The notes under the pieces: generated by a model
Seen by the model: only the letters and a program-made list of their open reading frames with translations
Databases searched by the model: none
What the model was told of the DNA's origin: nothing
DNA from: an uncultured Actinomycetes bacterium
GTDB lineage: Bacteria; Actinomycetota; Thermoleophilia; Gaiellales; Gaiellaceae
Direction of reading: 5' to 3'
DNA: 64,000 nt
Assembly (NCBI GenBank): GCA_963830035.1
Contig: CAWHKX010000004.1
Span: 412,860 to 476,859, forward strand
In this document: positions 7,037-38,059 of the stretch, in pieces
Numbering within the stretch: position 1 is the stretch's first letter
How the letters are laid out: each line of letters opens with the position of its first letter
Position numbers and translations under genes: made by a program

Positions 7037-8002
7037 GTGCGGATCGAAGCCGTCGACTACCACACGGGCGGGGAGCCGTTTCGCATCGTCACCGGCGGGG
7101 TCGAGGCGCCGCGCGGAGCGACCATCCTGGACAAGCGCCGCGACGCTCGCGCGCGTCTCGACCACATCCGGCGCCTGCTGGTCTTCGAACCTCGAGGCCA
7201 CGCGGACATGTACGGCTGCTTCGTCGTCGAGCCGAACGACGAAGAGGCGGATCTCGGCGTCGTGTTCTTCCACAACGAGGGCTACTCGACTGCGTGCGGG
7301 CACGGCACGATCGCGCTCGTCACCTGGGCGCTCGACGAGGGAATCGTCGAGCGACGCGAGGGTGAGAACCACCTCGTCGTGGACGTACCGTCCGGGCGCC
7401 TGCAAACCTGGGCCCAGGTGGAGGACGGCCGCGTACGCTCCGTGCGCTTCCGAAACGTCCCGGCGTTCGTGTGGGCCGAAGGAGTGGAGGCGGGTGACCA
7501 CACCGTGGATATCGCCTTCGGCGGCGCGTTCTACGCCTCGCTTGGGGAGACGGTGGAACCGGGTGAGCTGCCGCGACTCATCGCGCTCGGACGAGAGCTC
7601 AAGCACGCGCTCGAGGCCGCGCACGAGATCGTCCATCCGCTCGAGCCCGAGCTCCGCGACGTGTACGGCGTCACCTTCTGGCAGGAGGAGGTCGGTGACC
7701 CACTGACGCAGCGCAACGTGACGGTCTTCGCCGACGGCGAGGTCGACCGCTCGCCGTGCGGGAGCGGAACCACCGCCCGGCTCGCGCTGCTCGACCGGTC
7801 CGGAAGGCTGCCCCGTGGCGAGGAGCTACGGCATCTGAGCATCGTCGGCTCCGAGTTCAGTGGGCGGGTTGTCGGGGACGCCGACGTGGCCGGCACACCG
7901 GCAGTCGTGACCGAAGTGGAGGGCAGCGCCTACCGGACGGGAGAGCACGTCTTCACGCTGGACGAAGACGATCCGCTGGGCGAGGGGTTTCTCCTGCGCT
8001 GA
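7037..8002 (+). CDS. Proline racemase family enzyme (Cys/Cys type: proline racemase or 4-hydroxyproline 2-epimerase)
   Basis: 321 aa. DYHTGGEPFRIV, FEPRGHADMYG, first catalytic Cys in STACGHGTIA, second in DRSPCGSGTTA. Confidence 0.85.
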   Translation: MRIEAVDYHTGGEPFRIVTGGVEAPRGATILDKRRDARARLDHIRRLLVFEPRGHADMYGCFVVEPNDEEADLGVVFFHNEGYSTACGHGTIALVTWALDEGIVERREGENHLVVDVPSGRLQTWAQVEDGRVRSVRFRNVPAFVWAEGVEAGDHTVDIAFGGAFYASLGETVEPGELPRLIALGRELKHALEAAHEIVHPLEPELRDVYGVTFWQEEVGDPLTQRNVTVFADGEVDRSPCGSGTTARLALLDRSGRLPRGEELRHLSIVGSEFSGRVVGDADVAGTPAVVTEVEGSAYRTGEHVFTLDEDDPLGEGFLLR

Positions 8003-12863: not shown

Positions 12864-13745
12864 ATGGCCAGGCTCCTCATCGCAAACCCCTGGGCTTCGG
12901 GCGTCGACGAGCACCGGCTCGCCGGCGTTCGCGAAGCGCTTCCCGCGGACACCGAGCTTCGGCTGACGAGCGCTCGCGACGAGGCGACCGCGATCGCGCG
13001 CGAGGTCTCCGGCCAGGTCGAGGCGCTCTACGTCTTCGGTGGCGACGGAACGTTCAACGAGGTGCTGAACGGCATCGACGAAACGACGCCGCTCGGGCTC
13101 ATCCCCGGTGGCGGCACGAGCGTGCTTCCCCGTGCGCTCGGTCTCCCGCGCGCCTCGGCCGCGGCGGCCCGGCGCCTGGCAGGGAGCGCGCGATCCCGCC
13201 GGATCGGGCTCGGACGGGTGAACGGACGGCGCTTCGGCTTCGCGTGCGGCGTCGGCCTCGACGCCGAGATCGTGCGCGCGGTCGACGAGCTCGGCCGCCG
13301 CTCGGACGGTCGGCGTCCGGGGAACGTCGTCTTCGCGTGGACGGGCCTTCGCACGCTGGCGCGGCACCGCTATCGGCTCGATCCCGCGCTCGAGGTGAAC
13401 GGGCACGGGAGGGCTGCCTTCGCGCTCGTCTCCAACGGCCCCTTGTACAGCTACGCGGGACCGATTCCCCTGCATGCATCGCCGAGCGCGACGTTCGAGG
13501 GGGGCCTCGACCTCGTCGCGCCGATGTCGGTGCGAGCGCGCGACATCCCGCGGATCGCCCGCTACGCCGTCGGTCGGAGCGACCGCGCGACTGCCCGCGA
13601 TCTCGTCTACCTGCACGACGCCGACCGCATCGAGATCGTGTGCGACCGCCCGCTCGCGCTGCAGGCCGACGGGGAGGACCTGGGCGACGTCGAGGAGGTC
13701 GTCTTCGAGGCCGAACGCGATGCCGTGACCGTGCTCGCGCCTTAG
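12864..13745 (+). CDS. Diacylglycerol/lipid kinase family protein (YegS/BmrU-like)
   Basis: 293 aa. VFGGDGTFNEVLNG, LGLIPGGGTSVLPRALG. Confidence 0.85.
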   Translation: MARLLIANPWASGVDEHRLAGVREALPADTELRLTSARDEATAIAREVSGQVEALYVFGGDGTFNEVLNGIDETTPLGLIPGGGTSVLPRALGLPRASAAAARRLAGSARSRRIGLGRVNGRRFGFACGVGLDAEIVRAVDELGRRSDGRRPGNVVFAWTGLRTLARHRYRLDPALEVNGHGRAAFALVSNGPLYSYAGPIPLHASPSATFEGGLDLVAPMSVRARDIPRIARYAVGRSDRATARDLVYLHDADRIEIVCDRPLALQADGEDLGDVEEVVFEAERDAVTVLAP

Positions 13746-13765
13746 TTCTCACGAACAACTTAGAA

Positions 13766-13799
13766 ATAGTCCGAAGCGGACTAAGCCGCTTCGGACTAT
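13766..13799. terminator. Perfect 14-bp-stem hairpin (ATAGTCCGAAGCGG-actaag-CCGCTTCGGACTAT) in an AT-rich gap
   Basis: Inverted repeat read directly. It lies 20 nt after the lipid-kinase stop. No clear U-tract, so the terminator role is inferred. Confidence 0.5.
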
Positions 13800-13831
13800 G
13801 GTCAAGACGTCGAGCGCAACTCGAACGCTGA

Positions 13832-14149
13832 CGAGGTCGGCTCGTCCTCCTGACCGGCCGCGTCACGTTCTCGGCCGGCGGCAACTTCGTCGCCGAGGTG
13901 GACGCGTTCACCCGCGCGCGGATCGTCGGCGAGGCAGCCGGCGGCAGCCCGCACAACTACGGCGATGCCGAGCAGGTCGAGCTCGACGCGCTCGGCTGGA
14001 CGGTCTACGTGCCACCACAGTACGTCGAGGTTCTCGGCCGTCCTGACGAACGGGTGGCGATCGAGCCGGACGTTCCGGTGCGGATCGGCGCCGAAGACCA
14101 CTTCGTCGGGCGCGATCCGGTGCTCGCCAAGGCGCTCGCGCTCCGCTGA
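13832..14149 (+). pseudogene. C-terminal remnant of an S41-type (C-terminal processing / tricorn-like) peptidase
   Basis: The frame opens at 13832 with no start codon. ..VLLTGRVTFSAGGNFVAEVDAFTRARIVGEAAGG.. resembles the catalytic-Ser segment and tail of S41 peptidases. The N-terminal ~300 aa are absent. Confidence 0.45.
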
Positions 14150-14190: not shown

Positions 14191-15258
14191 ATGAGCCAGG
14201 TGCTGCCGGCGGAGGGAGGCTTGCGCCGCGTCATCGGCGACGGTGAGTCGCTCCCCGACGGCGAGGTGGACGGCCTCGGATCCGATCAGCTGCTCGCGCT
14301 CTACCGCGATCTCGTGCTCCTGCGTACGTACGACGAGCGCTCGGTCGTGTATCACCGGCAGGGGCGGATCGGGACGTACGCCATCTTCTGGAACCACGAG
14401 GCCATGCAGGCCGGTGGGGTCTTCGCGCTCGAGGAGCGCGACTGGATCTTCCCGGCGTACCGCGAGTCCGCGATCGGGCTCCTGCGCGGAATGCCGGTGT
14501 CGACCGTGCTCTCCTGGTGGAGAGGGCATCCGGCGGGGTGGTGGAATCCGGCGGAGTTCAACGTCGCGTCGATCTGTGTCCCGATCGCGACGCAGATCCC
14601 CCATGCGGTCGGGTTTGCCTGGGGATCCGCTCTCAAGGGCGAGGATCGAGTCGCACTCACCTTCTTCGGCGACGGTGCGACCTCGGAAGGGTCGTTTCAC
14701 GAGGGTGCGACCTTTGCCGGCGTCATGAAGGCGCCGGTCGTCCTGTTCTGCAACAACAACCAGTGGGCGATCTCGACTCCGCTCTCGGCGCAGACCGCCG
14801 CGCCCACGCTCGCCGACAAGGCCATCGGCTACGGGATGCCGGGAGTCCGGGTCGACGGCGGTGACGTCCTCGCCGTCTTCGAGGCGACGCGCGAGGCGGT
14901 GACTCGAGCACGCGCCGGCGAGGGACCGACCTTCATCGAAGCGGTGACCTATCGTGCGGCGCCTCATGCGACCGCCGACGACCCGTCGATCTACATCGAT
15001 TCGGAACGCGTGGAAGAAGAGAGGGAGAACGAGTGCGTCGGCCGCTTCGAGCGCTATCTGCTCCGCACCGGAGTCCTCACCGATTCGCGCGCGGCGGAGA
15101 TCAAGCAGGAAGCGCTCGAGCTCATGCGAACCGGAATCGCGGAAGCAGAGGCCGAGCCGCCCGCCGACCCAGGGCTCGTCTTCGAGCACGCCTATGCGAA
15201 TCCGCCGCCGTCGCTCGCGGACGACCTCGCCGAGCTGAGGAGAGTTCTCGGTGAGTGA
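14191..15258 (+). CDS. 2-oxoacid (pyruvate/branched-chain) dehydrogenase E1 alpha subunit, ThDP-dependent
   Basis: 355 aa. YRESAIG, FFGDGATSEGSFHEG, NNQWAISTP. Confidence 0.9.
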   Translation: MSQVLPAEGGLRRVIGDGESLPDGEVDGLGSDQLLALYRDLVLLRTYDERSVVYHRQGRIGTYAIFWNHEAMQAGGVFALEERDWIFPAYRESAIGLLRGMPVSTVLSWWRGHPAGWWNPAEFNVASICVPIATQIPHAVGFAWGSALKGEDRVALTFFGDGATSEGSFHEGATFAGVMKAPVVLFCNNNQWAISTPLSAQTAAPTLADKAIGYGMPGVRVDGGDVLAVFEATREAVTRARAGEGPTFIEAVTYRAAPHATADDPSIYIDSERVEEERENECVGRFERYLLRTGVLTDSRAAEIKQEALELMRTGIAEAEAEPPADPGLVFEHAYANPPPSLADDLAELRRVLGE

Positions 15259-16225
15259 GCGCTTCCTGGTGGAGGCGGTCAACGACGCGCTCCACGTCGA
15301 GCTCGAGCGGGATCCCTCCGTGCTCGTCATGGGCGAGGACGTCGGGCGCCTCGGCGGCGTCTTCCGTGCGACGGCAGGGCTCCAGGAGCGCTTCGGCCCC
15401 GACCGCTGCGTGGACACTCCACTGGCGGAGGCCGGAATCCTCGGAACGGCCGTCGGGCTCTGCATGGCGGGCTGGCGGCCGGTCTGCGAGATGCAGTACG
15501 ACGCCTTCAGCTACCCCGCGCTCGACCAGCTGATCAACCACGTCGGCAGGTACCGCTGGCGCACGCGCGGGACGATGTCCTTCCCGCTCGTGATCCGCAT
15601 GCCGTACGGAGGAGGTGTGCGTGCGCCCGAGCTGCACGACGACTCTCCCGAGACCTACTACGTGCACACGCCGGGCGTGAAGGTCGCGATCCCGTCCACA
15701 CCGGCCGATGCGAAGGGCCTGCTCGCCGCGGCCATTCGCGATCCGGACCCGGTCGTGATCCTCGAGCCGAAGCTCATCTATCGCACCGCGCGAGGCTCCG
15801 TGCCGGACGGGGAACACGTCGTGCCGCTCGGCAAGGCGCGGATCGCCCGCGAAGGCTCGGACGTCACGCTGGTCGCCTACGGCGCCATGGTTCCCCTCGC
15901 CGAACGAGCCGCGGACGCGCTCGAGGACGAGGCGTCGTGCGAGGTGCTCGACCTGCGGAGCCTGAAGCCGCTCGACGAGGATGCGCTGCTCGCGTCCGTC
16001 GGCAAGACCGGGCGTGCCGTCATCGTGCAGGAAGCGCCGCGTGTGTGCGGGTTCGCCGCCGAGGTCGCCGCCGTGCTCGCCGAGAAGGCGATCTTCGACC
16101 TGCGCGGGCCGGTGCTCCGGGTGACGGGCTACGACGTGCCGTATCCCTACTGGCAGATCGAGGACGCGTACATGCCGTCGGTCGAGCGCGTCCGAGATGC
16201 CGTGCGGCGACTGCTCGCGGCCTAG
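15251..16225 (+). CDS. 2-oxoacid dehydrogenase E1 beta subunit
   Basis: 324 aa. VMGEDVGRLGGVFRAT, DTPLAEAGI, ILEPK. Overlaps E1 alpha by 8 nt. Confidence 0.9.
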   Translation: MSERFLVEAVNDALHVELERDPSVLVMGEDVGRLGGVFRATAGLQERFGPDRCVDTPLAEAGILGTAVGLCMAGWRPVCEMQYDAFSYPALDQLINHVGRYRWRTRGTMSFPLVIRMPYGGGVRAPELHDDSPETYYVHTPGVKVAIPSTPADAKGLLAAAIRDPDPVVILEPKLIYRTARGSVPDGEHVVPLGKARIAREGSDVTLVAYGAMVPLAERAADALEDEASCEVLDLRSLKPLDEDALLASVGKTGRAVIVQEAPRVCGFAAEVAAVLAEKAIFDLRGPVLRVTGYDVPYPYWQIEDAYMPSVERVRDAVRRLLAA

Positions 16226-26898: not shown

Positions 26899-27414
26899 GT
26901 GTGGGAAGAGATCGCGGCCGACGCGGCCTCCGAGAGCCCGCTCTGGGCTGACGCGCTGCTTCCGGTCGCGGAGCGTCGTCTTGAGCCGGTCTTCTCGCCC
27001 CTGGCTCCTCCGGAGCTCGGGCTCGGGCTGGAGACGATCTACGAGGGATATCTCGTGCACTACGGACGGTCACGGCTGTTCAGGTCGGCGCGAGCGGACA
27101 CCGCCCTGCTCCTCGGCGACTACCTGTACGCGCACGGGCTCGTCCGTGTCGCTGCGACCGGAAACGTCGCTGCAGTGCTGGATCTCTCCGAGCTCATCGC
27201 CATGTGCTCGCAGGTCAGAGCGGAGGGTCGCAGCGGCGACGGGATCGCCTGGGCAGCGACCGCGGCTCGCCTCGGGTCGGGAGGCCTCGACGCTGCGCGC
27301 GACGCGCTCAGGCTCGACACGAACCCGGCGCCGCTCGACGAGGCCGCACGCGAGTCTGCCGGTGCCGAGCCGGTCGAGCGCGCGCTCGCTGCACATGCCG
27401 TGTTGGTCGGCTAG
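26899..27414 (+). CDS. Hypothetical protein
   Basis: 171-aa ORF (GTG start) with normal, non-Arg-biased composition. No family recognised. Confidence 0.5.
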   Translation: MWEEIAADAASESPLWADALLPVAERRLEPVFSPLAPPELGLGLETIYEGYLVHYGRSRLFRSARADTALLLGDYLYAHGLVRVAATGNVAAVLDLSELIAMCSQVRAEGRSGDGIAWAATAARLGSGGLDAARDALRLDTNPAPLDEAARESAGAEPVERALAAHAVLVG

Positions 27415-27425
27415 AGTCGCGCCCG

Positions 27426-27584
27426 ATGAGCGGCCTCTATGCACCGGTCCTCGCGGACGCGGCCGAAGAGGGACTCAACATCATCCTCTCGATGCTCGTC
27501 GTCGGGCTCGTCTTTCTCGCGGTGATTCTCCTCGGCGACCTGAACGAGTGGTTCGCCCGCCGCCGCCACCGGCGCCACGGCTAG
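27426..27584 (+). CDS. Small single-pass membrane protein (hypothetical)
   Basis: 52 aa MSGLYAPVLADAAEEGLNIILSMLVVGLVFLAVILLGDL..RRRHRRHG inside ORF 27204..27584. Confidence 0.4.
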   Translation: MSGLYAPVLADAAEEGLNIILSMLVVGLVFLAVILLGDLNEWFARRRHRRHG

Positions 27585-27838
27585 GGCAGATCGGGAAAGC
27601 CTTCATGACGCGTCGCAAGTGCGGGTCGCTCACCGCGCGTGACGACAGGCGTCGACTCAGGCCTTCCTCGCTTGCGGCGAGCTGAAAACGCGTCGGCTGT
27701 TCGGCGCGACACGGGCGTGTGGGAGATCGTGCTCGCGACCCTGGAAGCGGAAATCGCTCCTCCGGAATGAAACGGGCTTGGTTGACATGTCTGAAGGTGA
27801 CATGCTCGCGGCGAGCACGATGGAGAACCAGGGGAGGG

Positions 27839-30800
27839 ATGAGCGCCGAGGACGAGGACGTGCCACAGCCGCACTCCTCGTCGCGCTGATTCTCGTCGGC
27901 GCGGGCTCCGGCGGGGCGGGAAGGTCGGCACGCGACGTCGACGTGGGTTTCCAGCAATTCACGATCTGGAAGACGAGAACCTCCATCCTCGCTGCCTACA
28001 GGTCAACTGGGCGCGCCACGAGTTCAGCAAGGGGACTGACCTTCTCGCTGGGTATGGAGGTCGGTTCAGCGCCGCCCGTCGGGGGGAGCACCCGAGCACC
28101 CGAAGGGGTCACGGTTCGGCACACTTTGCCCGCGGGACTGCGGTGGCGCGCCATCCCGCCCGAGCCCAGAACGACGGCGCGCGCAGTGTGGCCTCCATGG
28201 GGATAGGTCGATCTGAGCGTGCGCATCGGCGTGAACACCGGTGAGGTGATGGTGACTCTCGATGCGTCGCCGGAGAGCGGCGAGGCAGCCGTCCTGGGTG
28301 ATGCTGTGAGCCGGCGGCTCGCATCAAACGGCGGCGCTCGTGAACGGGGTGGCCGTCGGCGAGGGCACATACGAGCGACGAAGCTCGTATTCGAGTACGA
28401 GCCTCTCGAGCCGGTCACAGCAAAGGGAAAGTCTGCGCCGCTCGAGTTGTGGCGTGCTACCGGCGCGTGCGCGCTTCGGCTCGGACGTGATCCGCTCGAT
28501 GGCAAGTCCGCTCGTGGGCAGAGAGACCGATCTCCGCTCTGCGCGGTGACCTCGACAAGTCCGTTCGAGAGCGCTCGACGCAGCTCGTGACCGTTGTCGG
28601 CGAGCCCGGTCTCGGGAAGAGCCGATTGGTCGCTGAGCTGTTCGCCTACATCGACGAGCTCCCGGATCTCATCACCTGGCGGCAGGGCCGCTGCCTTCCG
28701 TATGGCGACGGAATCACGTTTCGGCCTTGGGCGAGACGTCAAGGCCGATGACGGGCATCTACGAGTCCGATTCGCCGGACGAAGCAGAGCGAAAGCTCGA
28801 CGTCGTTCTACCCGAGGGTGACGGAGCACCGAGTGGCTGCGCGCGAGGGTTCTCCCCTTGCTCGGAGTCGACTCGGGCGTCTCGGCTTCGAGGGAAGAGT
28901 CGTTCACGGCCTGGAGGCGTCTTCTCGAGGCGATGCGAAAGCGGGCCTTGCGTTCTCGTCTTCGAGGACGTCCATTGGGCGGACGAGGAGCTGCTCGCCT
29001 TCGTCGAGTACCTCGCGGATTGGGCGCACGGCGTGCCTTGCTTCTCGTCTGCACAGCTCGGCCCGAGCTGTACGAGCGACATCCGTCGTGGGCCGCGGGG
29101 CTCCGCAATGCGACGACCATCGCGCAGACCCCACTGTCGGAGGTCGAGACGGCTCAGCTCATCGCAGCGCTCCTCGACCAGGCGGTTCTCCCGGTCGAGA
29201 CGCAACGGCTAATCCTCGAGCGAGCCGGCGGGAATCCGCTCTACGCCGAGGAGTTCGTGAGGATGCTGCGCGATCGCGATCTCGTCGATACGCGCGGAAC
29301 GCTCCGTGTCGACGCGGAGGTGCGTTTCCGGACTCCATCCAGGCACTGATCGCCGCACGTCTCGACACGCTCGCGCCGGACCGAAAGGCGCTGCTCCAGG
29401 ACGCCTCCGTGGTCGGGAAGGTGCTTCTGGGCAGGTGCGATCTCGGCGATGAGCGGACACGACCTCGGGTCTGTCGAGCGGGCGCTCCACGAGCTCGCTC
29501 GCAAGGAGCTCATCCGTCCGGCGCGTCAGTCCTCCATGCGAGCCGAACAGGAGTTTGCGTTCTGGCACATCTTGGTGCGCGACGTTGCCTACGGGCAAAT
29601 CCGCGCGCTCAGCGGGCTGGGAAGCACGTCAAGGCGGCCACCTGGCTCGAGGAGAAGGCTCGGGATCGAATTGAAGATCTGGCGGACGTGCTCGCTGTAT
29701 CACACCGGCGAGGCACTGGCGCTCGCCGTGGCCGCCAACGACCGCGAAACGGCTGCGGTGCTTGCCCCATCCGCGCGCCGCTACGCGCTCCTCGCCGGGG
29801 AGCGGGCGCTGGGGCTCGACACGAAGAAGGCGTTGCCGCTGCTCGAAGAGGGCGCTCGAGCTCACCCCAGAGCAGGACAGCGAGTACGCCGTGGTGCAGG
29901 CGCGGTGGGCCATGGCCGCTCGCGACGCTGGGCGCGTACGCGAGGCCACAGCCGCCCTGGAGCGGGCAAGCTCGGTGTTCAGCGAGCGCGGTGAGTTCGC
30001 TTCGGCGGCGGAGGCGCTGATTGCGCTGTCGCTCACGATCCAATACGGCGGCGCGGATCGATCAGAAATCGCCACTGTGGAGGAGGCTGTCTCACTGGCG
30101 GAGAGGGCAGGCTCGAGCGCCGTGCTCGTAGAAGCACTCTCGAGGCTGGCGACGCTTCTCTGGCTTCGAGCCGACTACGACAGCGCCCTCGCCACCGCGC
30201 AGAGCGCGGTCGAGCTCGCGGAGGAGAGCGGCGGATCATCGGCAGTCGCGCGGAGTTGCCGAGGCCTCGTGCGGTGCGAGCTCGGCGATCGCGGCGGTGT
30301 CTCCGACATCGAGGAGGCTCTCGCCGAGCTGATTGCCGAAGGCAGGGGGAGAGAGGCGGCGATGCTCCAGAACAACCTCGGCTACGCGCGATGGGCGTAC
30401 GAAGGTCCTCGCATCGCACTCGGCGTGTTCGCCGGTGGAGCCGACTTCGCCACTCGCCGGGGCATTACGTCAATCGCGCAAGTTACCGCGTCCAGTCGTC
30501 TCAGCGCGTTGGTCGAGCTGGGTCTGCTCCACGACGCGGTTGCCGGTGCGGACGAGCTATTCGCGGCGCACGAGGGCGACCAGAACCTTCTAGAATATGG
30601 TTCCGCATCGGCAAGCCGCGCTCGAGCGCTGGCCGAGCTGGGAAGGACGGAGGAGGCACGCGGGAGCGCCGAGATCGCGCTGACTACGGCCCGACAGCTC
30701 GATCGGCTCGACGAGTTCGTCAATGCCGCTCTCGCGGGATCGATCGTCTACATCGACGTCGCGAGCTTCCGCGAAGCACGTCAGCTCCTCGACGAAGTCT

Positions 30801-31225
30801 TGCAGCTGCCCAACGTCAAAGCGTGCGCCGAGTACCCATATCGCGTGCCTGCGCTCGTCCGCGCTGCACTGGCGACGGGCGACTCGCGGCTCGCTCGAAC
30901 CTTCGCGGAAGGCGTCGACGCTGTGCTCCCCATCGGTGCGCATGCACTCGCCACGGCCTCGGCGCTCCTGGCGGAGGCGGACGGCGAACGTGTTGCGGCA
31001 GCCGAGCGTTTCGCGGACGCCGCATCACGTTGGAAAACCTTCGAAGGTCGGCTCGAGCAAGCCTACGCGCTCCTCGGCCGAGGGCGGTGTTTGTCTGAGG
31101 TCGGTGGCGCCGGCGCCGACGCACCTCTCCTTGAAGCGCGTGTGCTGTTCTCCGAGATGGGAGCACGGCCCTGCGTGGCCGAGTGCGACGCGCTGATTGC
31201 CCGCGCAAGCGCGATCGGATCGTAG
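27839..31225 (+). pseudogene. Second adenylate-cyclase / AAA-ATPase / TPR-like regulator gene, heavily decayed (in-frame stop and about 10 frameshifts); only the last 487 codons form one ORF
   Basis: Degenerate cyclase domain with TAG at 28204-28206 just before VDLSVRIGVNTGEVMV. Then, in alternating frames: PLVGRETDL, VTVVGEPGLGKSRLVAELF (Walker A), VLVFEDVHWADEELL (Walker B), RAGGNPLYAEEFVRML, LIAARLDTLAPDRKALLQDASVVGK, and the helical repeats of ORF 29762..31225. Confidence 0.75.
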
Positions 31226-31242
31226 GGACGGCTTGTGCGCGG

Positions 31243-31258
31243 TGTCACAGCGGTGACA
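31243..31258. promoter_or_regulatory. Perfect CRP/FNR-like dyad TGTCAC-AGCG-GTGACA (TGTCA-N6-TGACA) about 95 nt upstream of the small EVEG-repeat gene
   Basis: 16-bp perfect palindrome read directly. 5-6-5 geometry as in TGTGA-N6-TCACA sites. A second dyad TGTCGCT-N6-AGCGACA follows about 7 nt downstream. Confidence 0.35.
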
Positions 31259-31350: not shown

Positions 31351-31680
31351 ATGACCGACAAGCAGAAAGAGCCGAAGGACGCCGAGGTCGAGGGGCAGGG
31401 CATCCGCTGGGAAGCGGATGACGGCGAGCCTTCGGACGCCGGCAGCGAAGTCGCCGAGGACGCGACTGAGCGCACAAGCCAGGTCGAGGGTCACCCGTGG
31501 AGATACGAGCCGACCAAGGACGTGGATGGGCAAAGCTTCAAGCTCAAGGGCGAGCTGGCCAAGGATGTCGAGGGCCACCCGCTCAAGTGGGGCGACAAGG
31601 CCGAGCCGGCCCAGGAGGTCGAGGGTCACCCGCTCAGGTTCGGCGACGAAGCCGAGCCGGCCGAGGACGTCTCCAAGTAG
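31351..31680 (+). CDS. Acidic 109-aa protein with five (E/D)V(E/D)G(H/Q) repeats; no family recognised
   Basis: ATG 31351 preceded by AAGGAGG. MTDKQKEPKDAEVEGQGIRWE..SQVEGHPWRYEP..DVDGQSFKLKG..DVEGHPLKWGD..EVEGHPLRFGD. Confidence 0.7.
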   Translation: MTDKQKEPKDAEVEGQGIRWEADDGEPSDAGSEVAEDATERTSQVEGHPWRYEPTKDVDGQSFKLKGELAKDVEGHPLKWGDKAEPAQEVEGHPLRFGDEAEPAEDVSK

Positions 31681-31809
31681 AACGCGCGAGGTCGAGGGAC
31701 AAGGGCGAAGTGGATCTAGCGTCCATGCGGGCGAGGGTTAGCGACGGGCGGTTTTCCGCCGCCCGTCGCCTTGAACCGAGACGCCCTCTGACCTAAAAGG
31801 GCTGGTCGT

Positions 31810-33480
31810 ATGCGGCGACTGCTCGATCGGCTCGGAACTCCCGTGACCGCTCTCCGCGGTCTCGCGGGCAATCGCGACCTTCGCCTTATCCAGCTCGCCT
31901 ACGCGGCTCGGAGGTCGGGAGCTGGATCGCCGTCGTCGCGCTGAGCGTCGTCTCCTTCTCCGACGGCGGTCTTACCGGTGTCGGGCTCGTGCTGGGGCTC
32001 AGAATGCTTGCGCCGACGCTGGCCGCTCCCTTCATGGGCGTGCTTGCGGACCGCCTCCCGAGGCGGCAGGTGATGATCGCCGCCGACCTCGTGCGGTTCG
32101 TTCTCGTCGGCCTCGCCGCCGTAATTGTCTGGGCAGACGGCCCGCTCCTCGTCGTCTACGCGATCACGAGCCTCGTCTCGGTTGCGACCACCGCCTTCCG
32201 CCCGGCGCAGGCGGCGCTCCTGCCGTCGCTGGCGCGGACGCCGGATAGACTGACTGCGTCAGCGATCTCATCGACCATCGAGAGCGTGATGTCGTTCGGC
32301 GGCCCGGCGCTCGGTGGAGTCATCGTCGCCAGCGCGGATGCCGGAACTGCGTTCGCAGTCACCGCAGCCATGTTCCTCTGGTCGGCTCTCCTGCTCCTCG
32401 GCGTCCACGAGCCGAAACGCCAGGCGCGCGAGGACGACGAAGCTCAGGAGGCGAGCGGCATCGTGGCCGAGCTGGGCGTGGGCGCTAGGACGCTTGTCGC
32501 CGACCGTCGGGTCGGATTGCTGGTCGGGCTGATCGGAGCGCAGGTGCTCGTGGCCGGCGCGTTCCTCGTGCTCGTCACGGGAGTAGCGTTCGAGACCCTC
32601 GAAGGCGGCGAGAAACAGCTCGGACTCCTGCTCTCGGCGCTCGGTGTGGGTGGTGTGCTCGGTGCCGGCGTCTCGCTCGGCCTCATCGGGTCACGTCTCA
32701 CAAGGAGCTTCGCGGTCGGGGTGGTTCTCTGGGGTGTCCCGATCGCGCTCCTCGCCATCTGGCAATCGTCCTTCGGCGCGTTCGTCCTCGTCGCCCTCGT
32801 CGGCTTCGCGAACACGCTCGTCGACGTGGCGGCGTTCACGCTTCTGCAGCGCGCGGTTCCGGACGACGTTCTCGCGCGCGTGTTCGGGATCCTCGAGAGC
32901 ATCATGTACGGGGCGACCGTGGCAGGTGCGCTCGCGGCTCCGGCGCTCATCGGAGTGGTCGGGCTCGACGCTTCGCTCGTCGTGACCGGTCTCTTCCTAC
33001 TCGTCGTTGTCGCCCTGACGTGGCCGTTGCTTCGCGGGCTCGACATCGCGCCGAAGCCCTCCGAGGAGACCCTCGCCCTGCTCGGCAGCGTTCCCTTCCT
33101 CGCGTCGGCTTCCGCCGACCGCGCTCGAGCATCTGGCCGGGGCACTCCGCTCGTCGAGGGTCGCTGGCGGCCAGGTCGTCTTCGAGGAAGGGGAAGCAGG
33201 CGATCGCTTCTATCTCGTCGCAGATGGCCGGGTCTCGGTGGCCGCAGACGGCCAGCTGATCCACGAGGGCGAGCGCGGGTACTTCTTCGGCGAGATCGCG
33301 CTGCTGCGGGACGAGCCCCGCATGGCGACCGTGACCGCGACGACCGACTTGGAGCTGCTCGCGCTCGAGCGCGACGAGTTCCTCGGCGCGGTCACGGGCT
33401 ACTCCGAGAGCTCCACGGCGGCGGATGCCGTGGTTGCGTCGCGGTTGCGTGCCTCCCGACCGGCGTTGCTCGAGCTGTAG
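31810..33480 (+). pseudogene. MFS transporter fused to a C-terminal cyclic-nucleotide-binding domain; two frameshifts (about 31900 and 33105)
   Basis: MRRLLDRLGTPVTALRGLAGNRDLRLIQLAYA (ATG 31810) in one frame. MFS body in ORF 31989... cNMP domain ..VVFEEGEAGDRFYLVADGRVSV..GYFFGEIALLRDEPRMATV in ORF 33238..33480. Confidence 0.7.
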
Positions 33481-33483
33481 AGA

Positions 33484-34134
33484 ATGTCGCCTGCGATGGA
33501 TGACCTCTTCCGAGCGGCTGCCGCCGCGGCGGCGCTGGGTACGGACGAGCGGCACGGCGCGTTGCTCCAATCGATCACCGATGTCGCCCGGGCGCTCTTT
33601 CGCGCAGAAGCGTCGACGATCTTCCTCCGTGATGAGCTCACGGACGAGCTCGTGTTCGCCGCGGTCTCGGGGACGGGCGAGAAGAGCCTCATCGGGTCGC
33701 GACTGCCGCCGAACACCGGCATTGCGGGTTGGACGCTGACGACGAAGCAGCCGCTCGCAATCGACGATCTCAAACGAGACCCGCGTTTCGCACACGACTC
33801 CGCCGAGTCGATCGGTTACGTGCCGAACGCGTTGATCGCCGTGCCCATCCTGCTCCAGGACACGGGCGTCGGCGTTCTGGAAGTGCTCGACCCGAATCTC
33901 GGTCGTACCGTGGGCCAGGGTGACCTCGCGCTGCTGGGGCTCTTCGCGGAGCAGGCGGCGATCGCGCTCGACATTGTGCGGCACGCGCGAGAGGCGCAGA
34001 GCGCACTCGACGGGCTGGAGGGGCCGGCCGCCAGCGCCGCACGTCTGGCGTCACTCGTTTCGGACCGCGACGACGCCGTCGCTTGGACGCGCGCTCTCGA
34101 TGCTCTTTCCGACGCTCTCGGGGGAGATCGCTGA
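33484..34134 (+). CDS. GAF-domain protein
   Basis: Intact 216-aa ORF. ..ASTIFLRDELTDELVFAAVSG..GIAGWTLTTKQPLAIDDL..PRF..ALIAVPIL..GVLEVLD. Confidence 0.8.
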   Translation: MSPAMDDLFRAAAAAAALGTDERHGALLQSITDVARALFRAEASTIFLRDELTDELVFAAVSGTGEKSLIGSRLPPNTGIAGWTLTTKQPLAIDDLKRDPRFAHDSAESIGYVPNALIAVPILLQDTGVGVLEVLDPNLGRTVGQGDLALLGLFAEQAAIALDIVRHAREAQSALDGLEGPAASAARLASLVSDRDDAVAWTRALDALSDALGGDR

Positions 34135-34993
34135 CAGCGGACGAGACGACTGGGTGGGCGCACGACGTCCTGCCCGCCTGGGGTCTGACGGCGGGCGAGG
34201 GAGAAGCCCTCACCCCGAGCCACTCCGGGAGCCGTTACCAGGGAATGGGCGTTCGGCGGAGCTACGGGAAAGGGAGTTCGCGTCTGCATCCTCGACTCCG
34301 GGATCGACACCGGACATCCCCTGGTCGGTGACGTCGAGCGCTCCGTGACGGTGCTCGAGGACGACGAGCGGCCGGTGATCGTGGACGATGACGAGGGAGA
34401 TGTCAGCGGCCACGGAACGGCCTGTGCGGGGATCATCCGCTCGCTCGCTCCGGAGGTGACCCTGGGCAGCGCGCGAGTGCTCGGGTCGGACGTGAACGGG
34501 CGCTTCGCAACCCTTGAGGCCGGCATCGCGTGGGCGATCGAAGACCGCTGGGACATCGTCAACCTGAGCCTGTCCGTACGCAGCCGCGAGTTCGCGCTCG
34601 ACCTCGCGGAGCTCGCGGATCGAGCGTCGCACGCGGGCACGGTGCTCGTCTGCTCCGCCCACAACCTGCCTGTGGAGAGCTATCCATGGCGCTTCGCCTC
34701 CGTCGTGTCGGTGGGAAGCCACGATGCGGACGACCGGAGCTCCTCTACTACAACCCGAACCGCCCGTGGAGTTCTATGCGCGCGGCGTCAACGTGCCCAT
34801 CGCGTGGCCGGGTGGCGGAACTGCGACGGCAACCGGGAACAGCTTCGCGGCGCCGCACGTCAGCGGGTTTCTGGCGCTCATCCGCTCGAAGCATCCGGCC
34901 TGACGCCTTCGACCTCAAGGCGGTCCTCATCGAGTGGCCGCGAACGTACGCGACGATCTCGTCGAGGAGTCGGCGTACCGTGCGCCTCTGTGA
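34131..34993 (+). pseudogene. Subtilisin-like serine peptidase (S8), about 5 frameshifts
   Basis: Catalytic triad segments lie in different frames: GKGVRVCILDSGID (Asp), DVSGHGTACAG (His), GNSFAAPHVSGFLALIRS (Ser). A possible CTG start at 34131 sits in a CTGA overlap with the GAF stop. The reconstructed stop is TGA 34991-34993. Confidence 0.7.
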
Positions 34994-34996
34994 CCG

Positions 34997-35513
34997 CTAT
35001 CCGTTGAATCTCGAGGCTTGGCCCTCGACTTCGCCGGCTCGAACTTGACCAGAGTCGCGGCCCCCTCGACCTCGGGCGCGAACGTGACCTTGAGGCCGCG
35101 CTCCTCGACCTCCACGTGCGGCCTCCAGTTGACGCGAGCGCCTGGCCCTCGATCTCGGCGGGGGGCTCGCAACTGATCCTTACTCCATGACCCTCGACCT
35201 CGGACACGGGCTCGAGCCTGATCTTGCTCGCATGCCACACCTCGGCATCGGGCTCGAACCTGACCTTGCTTACCTGCCCCTCGACTTCGGCAGGCGGCTC
35301 GGCCTTGATCTTGAAACCCTGGCCCTCGACCTCGGCCGGCTCGAACTTGATCCTGAGGCTCGCGCCCTCGACCTCGGTGGGCTCGAACCTGACCTTTGAG
35401 AACTGCCCCTCGACCTCCGCCACCTCGAACCTGATCTTCACAACATGGCCCTCGACCTCGAACCTGACCTTGGACGCGTGGCCTTCGACCTCGAACGTGT
35501 GCTCCTCGCCCAT
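34997..35513 (-). pseudogene. Tandem-repeat protein: about 12 units of FEPxEVEG(H/Q)xxK(V/I)(R/K); two frameshifts in the last third
   Basis: ATG 35513 preceded by GAGGAGG. MGEEHT FEVEGHASKVR FEVEGHVVKIR FEVAEVEGQFSKVR FEPTEVEGASLRIK FEPAEVEGQGFKIK AEPPAEVEGQVSKVR FEPDAEVWHASKIR LEPVSEVEGHGVRIS CEPPAEIEGQ. The repeats then continue in other frames (..HVEVEERGLKVT FAPEVEGAATLVK FEPA / EVEGQASRFNG-TAG 34997). The uninterrupted frame (to 34878) turns into Arg/Ser-rich junk. Confidence 0.65.
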
Positions 35514-35602
35514 CGGGATGCCTCCTCTGCCCGTTGCCGCTACGCGCCGCTGAGTCTGGATGCCGCGGCGTGATGTGTCCAGCCCACTGGCGACAGCGCT
35601 TG

Positions 35603-35618
35603 TGTCACCGCGGGCACA
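35603..35618. promoter_or_regulatory. Imperfect copy of the dyad, TGTCAC-CGCG-GGCACA, between the EVEG-repeat gene and the second crp-like gene
   Basis: The left half and the spacing are identical to 31243-31258. The right half has 2 mismatches. It lies 90 nt upstream of ATG 35513 (minus strand) and 18 nt upstream of ATG 35636 (plus strand). Confidence 0.25.
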
Positions 35619-35635
35619 CTTCGTAGGCCTGCGCA

Positions 35636-36292
35636 ATGGAGTTCGAGGTGTTCAGGGATGTTCCGGCCGACCACGTTCGCGAGCTTCTCTCGATCGCGCG
35701 GCGGCGCAGGTTCAAGCGCGAGGAGGTCGTCTTCCACCATGGAGACCCGCGGACTCCCTGCAGCTGATCGTCAAGGGGCACTTCGCTTCGAAGCTTGTAA
35801 CCCCGCTCGGGCAGTCGGCGATGATCGCAGTCCACGGGCCGGGCGATGCGTTCGGCGAGCTGGCTCTGCTGGCCACGGGATCGCGCCGGTCGGCGACCGT
35901 CTCCGCGCTCGAGGACGCCGAGACGTTCAGCGTCGTCCGGGACGAGTTCTTCCGCCTCAGCGCGCGACATCCGGGCGTGAAGGACTGCCTGCTCGCGGTA
36001 CTGGCCGAGCAGATCCGTCGAGCCAACGAGCGGATCATGGTCGCGCTTACTGCGACGCGGACGAGCGCGTTCGCTGGGCGCTCCTCAGCTCGCTCGGGCG
36101 TACGGCGGCGAGGACATCGCGATCCCGCTTACGCGGAGCAGCTGGCCGAATACGCCGGCACCGCTCGCGGGCCCTCACCGCGTCCTGCAGGAGGAGGCGG
36201 CGCGCGGGGCCATCACCCTCGAGCGCGGTCGCGTGCGCGTTGTCGCGCTTGGCGAGCTCCGAACGCCGTGTCGCAGCGTGCCGCGCCTCTGA
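35636..36292 (+). pseudogene. Second Crp/Fnr-family regulator, paralog of 2515..3178; at least 3 frameshifts
   Basis: MEFEVFRDVPADHVRELLSIARRRRFKREEVVFH.. / ..LIVKGHFASKLVTPLGQSAMIAVHGPGDAFGELALLATGSRRSATVSALED..HPGVKDCLLAVLAEQIRRANERI.. / ..ERGRVRVVALGEL.. lie in three frames. Confidence 0.65.
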
Positions 36293-36374
36293 GAGGCGAG
36301 CCGACCTACCCTCCGGAACCGTCACCTTTTCTGTCACCGACGTCGAGGGCTCGACCAAGCTCGTGGAGGAGTGA
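36291..36374 (+). pseudogene. 27-codon N-terminal stub of a third cyclase/ATPase-type regulator
   Basis: ..DLPSGTVTFSVTDVEGSTKLVEE-TGA matches the characteristic N-terminus (PSGTVTFLFTD.EGST) of this regulator class. Nothing homologous follows. Confidence 0.4.
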
Positions 36375-36559: not shown

Positions 36560-38059
36560 ATGCGTATGACCAGTGCCATAGCGAAAGTGCCGTCGCCTCC
36601 CCGAGACCTCCGAGCGTGGATCGCGCTCCTCGAGCGTGAGGGCGAGCTTCGGCGCATCTCCACTGAGGTCGACCCCGACCTCGAGATCACCGAGATCGTC
36701 GACCGCGTCGTCAAGTCCGGCGGGCCGGCGCTCCTGTTCGAGAACCCGAAGGGATCGAAGCATCCGCTCCTGATCAATCAGTTCGGCAGCGAGCGGCGCA
36801 TGTGCCTCGCGTTCGGCGTCGAGAAGCTCGACGACGTCGGGGAAAAGCTCGGCGACGTCCTCGATATGCAGCCCCCGAAGGGCCTCAGGGAGAAGGTCAA
36901 GGGTCTGCTCAAGCTGAAGTCGGTCGCGGACTCGATGCCGAAGACTGTCTCCAAGGGGTCGTGCCAGGAGATCGTCCTCCAGGGCGACGACATCGATCTC
37001 GGGAACCTTCCGATCCAGCGCTGCTGGCCGGGCGACCCCGCGCCGTTCATCACGCTGCCCGCCGTGATCACGCAGGACCCGAACACGGGCGTGCGCAACG
37101 TCGGCATGTACCGGATGCAGGTCAACGACAGGAGCTCGACCTTCATGCACTGGCAGATGCACAAAGACGGTCGTGCCGACCTGCTCGCGGCCGAGGATGG
37201 CCGCATCCCGGTCGCGGTCGCGATCGGGCTCGACCCCATCACCGCTTACTCGGCGTCGGCGCCGCTCCCGAAGCATCTCGACGAATTCATGCTCGCAGGT
37301 TTCCTCCGCGGCTCCCCGGTCGAGCTCGTTCGCTGCAAGACGATCGACCTCGAGGTGCCCGCGAACGCCGAGATCGTCCTGGAGGGACACGTCTCGAAGG
37401 ACGACGTAGGCATCGAGGGCCCGTTCGGGGATCACACGGGCTACTACTCGCACGCCGAGCCGTTCCCGATCTTCCGGATCTCAGCGCTGACCATGCGGCG
37501 CGACGCGATCTACTCCTCGATCGTCGTCGGCAAGCCACCCGCGGAGGACGCCTGGCTCGGGAAAGCGACCGAGCGGATCTTCCTGCCCGCGGTCAAGATG
37601 ACGCTGCCCGAGCTCGTCGACTACGACCTTCCGGTCGCCGGCGCGTTCCACAACTGCGCGATCGTCTCGATCCGTAAGACGTTTCCCGGACATGCGCAGA
37701 AGGTCATGCACGCGCTCTGGGGGCTCGGGATGCTGTCGCTTACGAAGTCGATCGTGGTCGTGGACGAGCACGTGAACGTGCACGACTACAACGACGTGTT
37801 CTTCCGCGTGACCGCGAACGTCGACCCCAAGCGTGACGTCCTCATCTCGGAGGGCCCGCTCGATCACCTGGATCACGCGCCCGGGCGACAGTTCTACGGC
37901 GGAAAGATCGGCATCGACGCCACGCACAAGCTTCCGGAGGAGGACGCTCGTGTCTGGCCCGAGGAGATCGTCATGTCCGACGACATCCGGCAACGGGTTT
38001 CCCAACGCTGGGCCGAGTACGGAATCGCCTCTCCTGACGCGCGCCCCCACGACCAGTAA
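36560..38059 (+). CDS. UbiD-family (prFMN-dependent) decarboxylase, likely menaquinone-pathway decarboxylase
   Basis: Intact 499 aa. ..GPALLFENPKGS..,..VGMYRMQV..STFMHWQMHKDG.., FGDHTGYY. Confidence 0.9.
   Translation: MRMTSAIAKVPSPPRDLRAWIALLEREGELRRISTEVDPDLEITEIVDRVVKSGGPALLFENPKGSKHPLLINQFGSERRMCLAFGVEKLDDVGEKLGDVLDMQPPKGLREKVKGLLKLKSVADSMPKTVSKGSCQEIVLQGDDIDLGNLPIQRCWPGDPAPFITLPAVITQDPNTGVRNVGMYRMQVNDRSSTFMHWQMHKDGRADLLAAEDGRIPVAVAIGLDPITAYSASAPLPKHLDEFMLAGFLRGSPVELVRCKTIDLEVPANAEIVLEGHVSKDDVGIEGPFGDHTGYYSHAEPFPIFRISALTMRRDAIYSSIVVGKPPAEDAWLGKATERIFLPAVKMTLPELVDYDLPVAGAFHNCAIVSIRKTFPGHAQKVMHALWGLGMLSLTKSIVVVDEHVNVHDYNDVFFRVTANVDPKRDVLISEGPLDHLDHAPGRQFYGGKIGIDATHKLPEEDARVWPEEIVMSDDIRQRVSQRWAEYGIASPDARPHDQ

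Follow-up and report, generated by a model that had tools for sequence, protein, structure and literature searches.

We sought to determine what kind of protein is encoded by a short minus-strand gene of tandem 11- to 15-residue units that lies next to a subtilisin-like peptidase gene, and what the two genes might do together. This gene, here termed VEGH-1, occupies positions 34997 to 35513 of the window, by which we mean the whole 64,000-nucleotide stretch of DNA that was analyzed. It begins with an ATG at 35513-35511, located 7 nt downstream of a Shine-Dalgarno sequence, GAGGAGG (35521-35527, minus strand), which could be read directly, and it ends with a TAG at 34999-34997. Three frames are traversed between the two, through frameshifts at ∼35136 and ∼35032 that each behave as a 1-nt deletion, and the frame-corrected product of 172 aa carries 12 units arranged around EVEG(H/Q) (for example, FEVEGHASKVR, FEVEGHVVKIR, FEVAEVEGQFSKVR, FEPTEVEGASLRIK, and FEPAEVEGQGFKIK). 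An earlier, sequence-only reading had placed a gene of about 12 units here, with the same start and with two frameshifts before the TAG, all of which was confirmed. Its further statement that every unit contains a His or Gln was incorrect, as units 4 and 11 read EVEGA, unit 10 reads EVEER, and unit 7 reads EVWH. Tandem Repeats Finder detected arrays in VEGH-1 with a period of 42 nt (4.9 to 7.3 copies, 68 to 72% matches) and one with a period of 33 nt (2.3 copies, 83% matches). Across the 64-kb window, the string GARGTSGARGG was found 16 times compared to 0.46 expected from shuffles, with 10 of the 16 occurrences in VEGH-1 and 3 in a second, shorter repeat gene, VEGH-2. The GC content by codon position in the proposed frame was 0.90/0.33/0.68, a profile that matches expectation for a coding gene on the minus strand. 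VEGH-1 and the peptidase gene are convergent and, since the latter ends with its stop at 34993, they do not overlap but are separated by a 3-nt gap. A promoter and terminator scan near VEGH-1 yielded nothing useful.

A Pfam search with VEGH-1 gave nothing above the cut-off (the best match was Filamin, E 0.06), and Peptidase_S74 (PF13884) was absent from the protein in the same search. NCBIfam returned zero matches for VEGH-1, for its relative P0001 (41% identical, E 7e-21), and for three short family members. The database relatives of VEGH-1 are all named 'hypothetical' and have no Pfam domain, in agreement with the original suggestion of an unrecognized repeat-protein type, and a literature search produced nothing relevant for the motif strings or for the combination of neighboring genes described below. 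No stretch is conserved enough for an alignment-based locus search, so we retrieved further loci with a hand-made DNA pattern that was based on the motif only and was blind to neighboring genes. We defined the family as small ORFs with at least two tandem (D/E)-E-V-E-G-(H/Q) motifs spaced 11 to 20 residues apart. The scans returned 16 loci from genomes and 87 from metagenomes, from which eight motif matches were excluded as chance or unrelated low-complexity sequence (L013, L032, L041, L051, L072, L082, L100, and L103). The motif search suggested in the sequence-only reading thus showed that the gene is not an orphan: approximately 95 family loci were recovered, nearly all of them from soil Actinomycetota (Gaiellaceae, Thermoleophilia). 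VEGH-1 is a member of an undescribed and unannotated family of small cytoplasmic proteins that match no Pfam or NCBIfam model.

With a median GRAVY of −1.57, the family proteins are strongly hydrophilic; most are acidic (pI <5 in 72 of 76 proteins), and they carry 2 to 12 copies of the motif. Among 306 distinct units, the V, E, and G were invariant, H was present in 92% and Q in 8%, position −1 was E or D in 98%, and a K or R was located three residues past the H in 57%. In the subtype found in the window, Gln replaces His in most units. Spacers are near-identical within one protein and unrelated between lineages, ranging in composition from acidic to Lys/Pro-rich, and the EVEG(H/Q) block is the sole common part. 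The anatomy of the family is therefore that of short-linear-motif arrays, (D/E)-E-V-E-G-(H/Q)-x-x-(K/R), with lineage-specific linkers. The proteins have no long leader, as the first motif begins after about 12 residues. Near-identical orthologues differ in copy number (2 to 5), and the C terminus falls exactly 5 residues past the last H/Q in 65 of 105 proteins. In the L108 locus, the repeat is followed by a full Peptidase_S74 domain (51.6 bits), and P0002 and P0009 carry S74 sequence in part; the cleavage Ser of this self-cleaving domain is located 4 to 5 residues past the H/Q in the fused relatives. VEGH-1 shares the family features in that its 12 units have a spacing of 11 to 15 residues (family range, 11 to 20), its frame-corrected C terminus (EVEGQ-ASRFNG*) extends 6 residues past the Q (family mode, 5; range accepted for the family, 4 to 6), and genes for an S8 peptidase, a GAF protein, an MFS-cNMP protein, and a Crp-type regulator are all adjacent. 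It is also atypical in being the longest (172 aa) and least hydrophilic (GRAVY −0.47) member and in carrying several degenerate motifs. Its K-V/I-R-F-E-P alternation of hydrophobic and polar residues is common to P0005, P0007, P0012, and P0013.

The adjacent genes form a module whose operon order, i.e., repeat gene, hairpin, MFS-cNMP, GAF, and S8, is common to the window and to its closest relative, locus L107. The first gene of the operon in the window is VEGH-2 (31351-31680, plus strand, 109 aa), which has the motifs EVEGQ, QVEGH, DVDGQ, DVEGH, and EVEGH and the ribosome site AAGGAGGAG. A vestigial, out-of-frame EVEGQ unit is found 3′ of VEGH-2 at 31688-31702. The gap before the exporter gene contains a perfect 12-bp GC-rich hairpin (31741-31769, plus strand, z = −3.98), which is possibly an attenuator or terminator; a comparable hairpin is present at the same place in L107. 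The next three genes, all on the plus strand, encode an MFS_3/MFS_1 exporter with a C-terminal cNMP-binding domain (31810-33480, frameshifts at ∼31915 and ∼33100), an intact stand-alone GAF-domain protein of 216 aa (33484-34134), and the subtilisin-like S8 peptidase (34140-34993, start approximate, at least six frameshifts). Divergent from VEGH-1 is a plus-strand gene for a Crp-type regulator with a cNMP-binding domain and an HTH_Crp_2 domain (35636-36290, end approximate, at least two frameshifts), which is followed by an N-terminal remnant of a class III nucleotide cyclase gene, 21 codons long (PSGTVTFSVTDVEGSTKLVEE; 36309-36371, plus strand) and truncated before ubiD. Class III cyclases are also found near the module in L107; by tblastn, the large cyclase/NB-ARC/TPR regulators of that locus had no counterpart in the window.

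Both repeat genes in the window are preceded by a Crp-box-like palindrome, TGTGCCCGCGGTGACA at 35603-35618 in the VEGH-1/Crp intergenic region, ∼90 to 105 nt upstream of the VEGH-1 ATG, and TGTGCGCGGTGTCACA at 31234-31249, ∼100 to 117 nt upstream of VEGH-2. Similar Crp-like boxes precede the VEGH genes of L107, and the window and L107 together contain seven TGTG-N8-CACA-like sites, five of which lie within ∼120 nt upstream of repeat genes, an enrichment noticed post hoc. When TGTGA-N6-TCACA with up to two mismatches was counted in all upstream regions of the family, enrichment was weak (7 sites compared to ∼4.4 expected), so the operator assignment draws on the window and L107 only. Rfam detected no RNA family in the window.

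Linkage of these genes to the repeat gene was conserved across loci that had been retrieved without regard to neighbors, as the sequence-only reading had anticipated for S8, MFS-cNMP, and Crp. At least one module gene (S8, GAF, MFS_3-cNMP, or Crp) was present at 78 of 95 family loci, although most of the contigs are only 1 to 3 kb long, and none of the eight chance-like motif matches had any. Where at least 4 kb of flanking sequence was available, both S8 and GAF were found at 20 of 29 loci. The MFS gene was the closest neighbor of the repeat gene, at a median distance of 75 bp. Gene order differs by lineage, with the gene set retained. Clustering of neighboring ORFs at the 37 loci with at least 5 kb showed that the only neighbors shared across lineages were MFS/cNMP/Crp, S8, and GAF; in this set, neither a YcaO heterocyclase or other tailoring enzyme nor any metal-homeostasis gene was conserved. 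Since no tailoring enzyme is conserved, the module is not a classical RiPP cluster.

We compared the S8 peptidase and its partners with characterized systems. The module S8 consists of a catalytic domain alone (in an intact homologue, PF00082 at E 1e-26), with neither a signal peptide nor a propeptide, and its best match among solved structures is subtilisin BPN′ (E 1e-28). All 15 homologues examined carry the Asp-His-Ser triad motifs, as does the window copy (VCILDSGID, GHGT, and GNSFAAPH). A cyanobactin-type protease was rejected, as the S8 scored 29.5 bits with the PatA/PatG model TIGR03895 (cut-off, 421). Short ORFs of tandem units with a conserved block nevertheless resemble cyanobactin PatE, processed by PatA/PatG, and the Kex2-processed alpha-factor precursors of yeast, and as in other multi-core precursors with subtilisin-like proteases, copy number varies and an S8 and an exporter are encoded alongside. 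The EVEGH family differs from these in having no long leader, heterocyclase, macrocyclase, or other tailoring gene, and the part that does not vary is an acidic block of 5 residues, which may be recognition site or product. The cNMP and GAF sensors of the EVEGH module are, to our knowledge, not known from cyanobactin- or Kex2-type multi-core systems. QhpE, which removes the leader of QhpC during maturation of quinohemoprotein amine dehydrogenase, is likewise a bare, signal-less, cytoplasmic subtilisin of ∼220 to 280 aa. Its model NF049966 was the second-best NCBIfam match at 91.1 bits (E 6e-26) but this is below the equivalog cut-off of 165, and genes for a QhpC-like protein, the radical-SAM protein QhpD, and the ABC protein QhpF were not among the conserved neighbors. 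The best NCBIfam match was to the type VII mycosins, which are also actinobacterial S8 peptidases (TIGR03921, 97.9 bits, E 6e-28), again below the cut-off (278.75). Unlike mycosins, the module S8 lacks both a signal peptide and a C-terminal membrane anchor, and T7SS genes were absent from the conserved neighbor clusters.

The exporter has the architecture of the actinobacterial MFS-cNMP fusions, presumably including the uncharacterized Rv3728/Rv3239c type of M. tuberculosis, which we liken to it by domain architecture alone. We know of no assigned substrate for the latter proteins and of no link between them and S8, GAF, or repeat genes. In Pfam, the module exporter falls in MFS_3 (PF05977, 'transmembrane secretion effector'), a family that includes the enterobactin exporter EntS. 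PADLOC gave domain-level matches only (generic subtilase, and the cNMP domain to PycTIR, E 2e-11) and none for the GAF or repeat protein, and we rejected a known defense system. The module resembles Pycsar in that its cNMP-binding domain matches Pycsar effectors and class III cyclases are near it in L107. This likeness is at the domain level, however, the effector would be a 12-helix MFS protein, and there was no whole-system match.

Taken together, these data suggest that the VEGH array serves the S8 peptidase as a multi-site substrate or multi-copy propeptide and that cNMP controls expression and export, a reading to which we assign a probability of roughly 45%. Of the three options raised in the sequence-only reading, namely, a precursor processed by the adjacent subtilisin, a β-sheet or solenoid scaffold, and a His/Glu metal-binding protein, the first is the best supported because of the S8/MFS-cNMP/Crp neighborhood conserved over ∼95 independent loci. 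The S8 would cut the array, with the EVEG(H/Q) block serving as the processing site or as the product itself, and the MFS exporter would then carry the short peptides out of the cell. Cyclic nucleotide might act on transcription through the Crp boxes upstream of the repeat genes and on export through the cNMP domain of the MFS protein, and the GAF protein perhaps controls protease activity. Tight linkage, the intact triad, the fixed 5-residue tail, hydrophilicity, the lack of an AlphaFold2 fold (see below), and the position of the cleavage Ser in the S74-fused relatives all argue for cleavage by S8. Arguing against it, the residues at the putative boundary 5 aa past the H are not uniform, Gly at P1 would be unusual for a subtilisin, some relatives have an S74 domain that could point to a structural role, the module lacks a conserved tailoring enzyme, and VEGH-1 itself is atypical for the family. 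Export is further questioned by the fact that MFS pumps usually carry small molecules, for which 14- to 18-mers would be large cargo. More tentatively, the whole module could be a cNMP-gated peptide release system, in which Crp switches on the propeptides, a GAF-controlled subtilisin cuts at EVEG(H/Q), and the cNMP-gated MFS protein exports the products as signals or metal ligands, with an S74-like self-cleaving linker in place of the protease in some lineages; we consider this possible but doubtful. If the propeptide reading is correct, the arrays would represent a class of ribosomally made multi-copy peptide precursors that has escaped annotation, has its own protease and exporter, and is wired directly to cAMP/cGMP sensing. 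The soil actinobacteria in which it occurs (Gaiellaceae, Thermoleophilia) are abundant and for the most part uncultured. A testable function would also be provided for very small repeat ORFs, which are often overlooked by gene callers, for bare signal-less subtilisins, and for MFS-cNMP fusions. Whether or not peptide release is the right model, the close linkage of the five genes identifies a functional unit that merits experimental study, and one regular expression or DNA pattern suffices to retrieve the family.

The same short-linear-motif anatomy (an invariant 5- to 8-residue block, variable linkers and copy number, extreme hydrophilicity) could instead belong to an uncleaved, disordered scaffold or regulator, in which each EVEG(H/Q)xx(K/R) motif binds a partner from the module, for instance GAF or the cNMP domain, or occupies the S8 active site as a decoy or inhibitor. 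Such an array would tune cAMP signaling or protease activity rather than supply exported peptides, consistent with the tight linkage to GAF, Crp, and cNMP domains and with the cyclases near L107, but it would leave unexplained a conserved active-type protease, an exporter that is the nearest neighbor, and the strict 5-residue tail, and we regard it as unlikely. We find it quite improbable that the Glu/Asp/His-rich repeats are a metal chelator, a fragment of which is exported by the EntS-like MFS_3 pump, or a desiccation-protective hydrophilin. Two or three carboxylates and an imidazole per motif, the acidic and highly hydrophilic composition, the soil origin, and the MFS_3 assignment would suit this role; against metal binding, Gln takes the place of His in 8% of all units and in the majority of those of the window subtype, three VEGH-1 units have Ala or Arg there, Lys/Pro-rich basic subtypes occur, and conserved metal-homeostasis neighbors were not found. 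The β-hairpin or solenoid scaffold is not supported. AlphaFold2 gave a mean pLDDT of 31.8 for P0001 (4 sequences) and 39.7 for the N-terminal part of VEGH-1 (12 sequences), both from shallow alignments and hence weak as negative evidence; hairpins were drawn, but no residue reached a pLDDT of 70. A fold common to the family is not plausible judging from its composition, as only the EVEG(H/Q) block is shared, the spacers vary, and most members are far too hydrophilic. We likewise give little credence to a version restricted to the amphipathic VEGH-1 subtype, a folded β-rich repeat or fiber of 14- to 15-residue strand-turn units, possibly trimeric. Its residue alternation and the modeled hairpins favor it, as does the S74 intramolecular chaperone domain after the L108 repeat (in phage tail proteins, Peptidase_S74 aids folding of trimeric fibers). 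The S74 domain directly follows the repeat unit in L108 and partly in P0002 and P0009, as in phage tailspikes and tail fibers, but VEGH-1 and most of the family lack it, the setting is not that of a phage, and no fold is predicted with confidence.

A separate issue is whether the S8-substrate reading applies to the window copy itself. Every module gene in the window except GAF is frameshifted, and the module may thus be inactive or mis-assembled here. The 5-kb module contains at least 12 frameshifts, which reflect a locally faulty assembly or recent decay, whereas the reading frames of ubiD and other long flanking genes are uninterrupted. The two VEGH-1 frameshifts are present in the given sequence and may stem from the assembly and not from the allele itself. 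It is a serious prospect, if short of even odds, that the VEGH-1 array is non-functional in this genome, either as a decayed pseudogene, in line with its degenerate motifs and the adjoining cyclase cut down to 21 codons, or as a product of mis-assembly. That the repeats themselves are an assembly artifact is ruled out by equivalent intact arrays on ∼95 independent contigs, including ones with k141_ and NODE_ names. Decay is disfavored, as most of the shifts act as single-base deletions, the reconstructed genes have no in-frame nonsense codons or large deletions, and the module retains 68 to 77% identity to L107 and a high GC3. L003 and L107, both on contigs named in the 'contig_NNN' style, have the same kind of repeat-gene frameshift, a pattern that fits consensus errors.

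VEGH-1, the 12-unit EVEG(H/Q) repeat gene on the minus strand of the window, starts with an ATG at 35513 that is preceded by GAGGAGG (35527-35521), and its frame consists of tandem units of 11 to 15 residues each (FEVEGHASKVR, FEVEGHVVKIR, FEVAEVEGQFSKVR, FEPTEVEGASLRIK, FEPAEVEGQGFKIK, etc.). The first frame runs up to EIEGQAL (~35136), a second then carries the repeat on as RVNWRPHVEVEERGLKVTFAPEVEGAATLVKFEPA, and a third, from ~35032, contributes EVEGQASRFNG before the TAG at 34999-34997; both frame changes look like 1-nt deletions. Tandem Repeats Finder returned periods of 42 and 33 nt at the gene, the DNA word GARGTSGARGG was found 16 times in the window compared to 0.46 expected, with 10 of the 16 copies inside VEGH-1, and GC by codon position (0.90/0.33/0.68) follows the pattern of a coding minus-strand gene. 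Frames, periods, and word counts thus bear out the tandem-repeat gene proposed in the sequence-only reading, but not its statement that every unit carries His or Gln, as 4 of the 12 have no clean H/Q (EVEGA twice, EVEER and EVWH once each). The frame-corrected protein has 172 aa, a GRAVY of -0.47, and a tail of 6 residues past the last H/Q; it was the longest and least hydrophilic of the proteins compared.

VEGH-1 matched no Pfam and no NCBIfam model, and only three relatives turned up when 5.8 billion proteins were searched with a word index. The best of these, P0001 (162 aa, 41% identity, E 7e-21), lies on a 1.5-kb contig with two tandem paralogues, both intact. Public DNA was searched with a pattern whose sole requirement was three EVEG(H/Q) codon blocks 16-46 nt apart. 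This pattern matched 16 loci in GTDB species genomes, chiefly MAGs of Gaiellaceae, Thermoleophilia, and unclassified Actinomycetota/Actinomycetes, and 87 metagenome stretches; leaving out 8 matches that resembled chance low-complexity sequence gave ∼95 family loci. They encode small, frequently paired ORFs, typically of the form MSEEQRKDEETEVEGHGAFPPKYGANDEPGDEVEGH...EVEGHVHRRS, ...DDDEVEGHKKHLGLDDDEVEGHKKHLG..., ...KPAAKPAAKPEVEGHVLKPAAKP..., or ...DVEGHAIRIKFEKMDPSDDVEGHVLKVKY.... A small-profile HMMER pass over 1.84 billion representatives added 37 matches, among them four amphipathic proteins near the VEGH-1 type (P0005, P0007, P0012, and P0013), and the 26 proteins of a second homologue search carried no functional name and no Pfam domain. 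As judged by sequence, VEGH-1 is a family member and no orphan. In the searchable literature, neither the motif nor the gene module around it was found described; both the protein family and the module are undescribed. With Pfam and NCBIfam empty and the relatives lacking a functional name, the original flag of an unrecognised repeat type was justified.

V, E, and G do not vary in any of the 306 distinct units. The residue before them is E (85%) or D (13%), the one further upstream is mostly D, the core is followed by H (92%) or Q (8%), and K/R occupies the third residue past H in 57%. Outside the motif, residues are lineage-specific, with linkers that range from strongly acidic to Lys/Pro-rich between lineages and are nearly identical inside any one protein. 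Motif spacing in the family is 13-20 residues, and copy number varies from 2 to 5 among near-identical orthologues. The C-terminus lies exactly five residues past the last H/Q in 65 of 105 proteins. For 76 clean family proteins, median length was 63.5 aa and median GRAVY -1.57.

We scored neighbour genes at the motif-only loci by tblastn with reference proteins. Since these loci were picked by motif alone, their neighbourhood is our strongest result. A constant set recurs: an S8 peptidase of ∼280 aa, a GAF protein of ∼210 aa, and either or both of an exporter (MFS-cNMP: an MFS_1/MFS_3 transporter that ends in a cNMP-binding domain) and a Crp-type regulator (cNMP_binding plus HTH_Crp_2). At least one module gene was present at 78 of the 95 loci, most of them on contigs of just 1-3 kb, which confirms the S8/MFS-cNMP/Crp neighbourhood predicted earlier; none was present at the 8 chance-like loci. 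Of the 29 loci with 4 kb or more of sequence to one side, 20 had both S8 and GAF. The gene set is kept while gene order varies by lineage: the repeat gene may precede the other genes, follow them, or diverge from them, at a median of 75 bp from the MFS gene, and S8 and GAF are adjacent or overlapping at all loci. No further gene family near the module was shared between lineages, and no peptide-tailoring enzyme was seen among the neighbours. In one lineage (L069, L022, L027, and 10 other Gaiellaceae-type loci), the surroundings repeatedly include genes for an ECF-type sigma-70 factor and for a fusion of phosphotransferase and class III aminotransferase, probably as lineage synteny and not as part of the module.

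The window holds a second repeat gene, VEGH-2 (31351-31680, plus strand, 109 aa), that the sequence-only reading did not list. It has a strong AAGGAGGAG ribosome site and lies directly upstream of MFS-cNMP (31810-33480). An out-of-frame EVEGQ unit just past its TAG (31688-31702), followed by in-frame AKWI*, hints that a terminal unit has been lost or mis-called. GAF (33484-34134) and S8 (∼34140-34993) follow; VEGH-1 and S8 converge and are separated by 3 nt, and the Crp gene (35636 to ∼36290) is divergent from VEGH-1. Beyond it, the N-terminus of a class III nucleotide cyclase survives as a stump of 21 codons (PSGTVTFSVTDVEGSTKLVEE, 36309-36371), cut off before ubiD (36560-38059). The closest relative of this module, L107, is a 31-kb metagenome contig with the same gene order and identities of 77% (S8), 73% (GAF), 68-71% (MFS-cNMP), and 61-74% (Crp). 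It carries four repeat genes (7303-7893, 10001 to ∼10480, 13802-14035, and 14972-15181) and several class III cyclases; within 1-20747, five genes have Guanylate_cyc domains, two of them large cyclase/NB-ARC/TPR/HTH regulators; full-length cyclases stand at the place matching the stump.

A scan for TGTG-N8-CACA that allowed no more than one mismatch found just four sites in the entire window, and two of them (31234-31249 and 35603-35618) lie ∼100 nt upstream of VEGH-2 and VEGH-1, respectively. In L107, all three such sites (14105-14120, 15251-15266, and 15274-15289) fall within two intergenic regions immediately upstream of repeat genes. The repeat-gene palindromes of both stretches fit TGTGC-N6-YGACA, 70-120 nt upstream. 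This pattern, spotted post hoc and with weak enrichment in a family-wide scan, points to putative control of the repeat genes by a Crp/FNR-type regulator, which would plausibly be the module's own. A perfect 12-13-bp GC-rich hairpin separates the small repeat gene from the exporter gene at the same position in the window (12 bp, 31741-31769) and in L107 (∼13740-13790, minus strand), with differing sequences; it may be an attenuator setting the precursor:exporter transcript ratio.

The S8 protein is a bare subtilisin catalytic domain without signal peptide or propeptide. Among solved structures, subtilisin BPN' is its best match (E 1e-28), all 15 homologues examined have the Asp/His/Ser motifs, and the nearest NCBIfam models, mycosin and QhpE, score far under cut-off. 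The simplest account of the module is that the repeat array is a multi-site substrate of this protease, i.e., a multi-copy propeptide. This account rests on small proteins, disordered and otherwise free to evolve, that repeat a short invariant block, on the fixed C-terminal tail, on a signal-less protease predicted to be active, on the adjoining EntS-like exporter, and on the hairpin past the small gene together with the Crp-like operators. S8 would cut the array at several sites, either inside EVEG|H, where Hxx(K/R) would serve for prime-side recognition, or ∼5 residues past H, and the conserved block would be either signal or product. We infer that fragments might then be exported through the MFS pump, with a cyclic nucleotide controlling expression, export, and, via GAF, perhaps proteolysis.

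Alternatively, the array could stay uncleaved and act as a multivalent motif scaffold or regulator. A role in metal binding, or as a protein of the hydrophilin type, is weakened by the replacement of H by Q or A. A beta-rich fibre would be closest to the hairpin/solenoid structure first proposed, which fared poorly: AlphaFold2 models of P0001 (mean pLDDT 31.8, 4-sequence alignment) and of the 124 in-frame residues of VEGH-1 (mean 39.7, no residue at or above 70, 12-sequence alignment) show hairpins without confidence. Given the low pLDDT, the extreme hydrophilicity, and linkers unrelated between members, a solenoid fold common to the family is not supported. In L108 (122-1263; P0007 and the next ORF), the repeat leads on to a Peptidase_S74 intramolecular-chaperone domain (51.6 bits) that is complete but split by a stop codon, and in P0002 and P0009 the inter-unit linker is the N-terminal S74 helix including the Ser...Lys dyad. 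As the Peptidase_S74 domain assists trimeric fibres in phage proteins, the amphipathic subtype could conceivably play a structural part. The S74 self-cleavage Ser lies 4-5 residues past H/Q, the point where stand-alone family proteins end, which suggests that a free C-terminus just past the repeat unit matters. The module most resembles systems with a multi-core precursor, a protease, and an exporter (cyanobactins, for example, or Kex2-processed repeat precursors), but every membership test places it outside them. QhpE, mycosin, and Pycsar systems were likewise rejected on every membership test.

The VEGH-1 copy in the window could also be a dead relic. Clustered in the 5-kb module (31810-36290) are 12 or more frameshifts, most of them deletions of one base: two in MFS-cNMP, at least six in S8, two in VEGH-1, and at least two in Crp, leaving GAF as the only unshifted gene of this stretch. 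A Crp paralogue at 2515-3166 has one frameshift, and adjacent long genes are intact (ubiD, 499 aa; others, ∼550-640 aa). The shifts reflect either local consensus error or real, recent decay. That the cyclase is truncated and the shifts cluster locally favors decay. Consensus error is favored by the predominance of single-base deletions, the absence of nonsense codons and large deletions from the reconstructed genes, undiminished identity to L107 with GC3 still high, and the same repeat-gene defect in L003 and L107, both on 'contig_NNN' contigs; with its frame restored, the L107 repeat gene reaches a canonical end, EVEGQCIRVK*. Repeat genes are mostly intact on contigs named k141_, NODE_, or Ga.... 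We suspect that the latter are short-read and the 'contig_NNN' loci long-read assemblies, which would fit an error-prone consensus. The identity of the VEGH-1 gene is unaffected by this choice. Upstream of VEGH-2, at 27400-31200, the coding signal is weak and ORFs overlap in several frames; a weak TPR_12 match at 29762-31225 is the sole match there, and the region may be another degraded or mis-assembled one.
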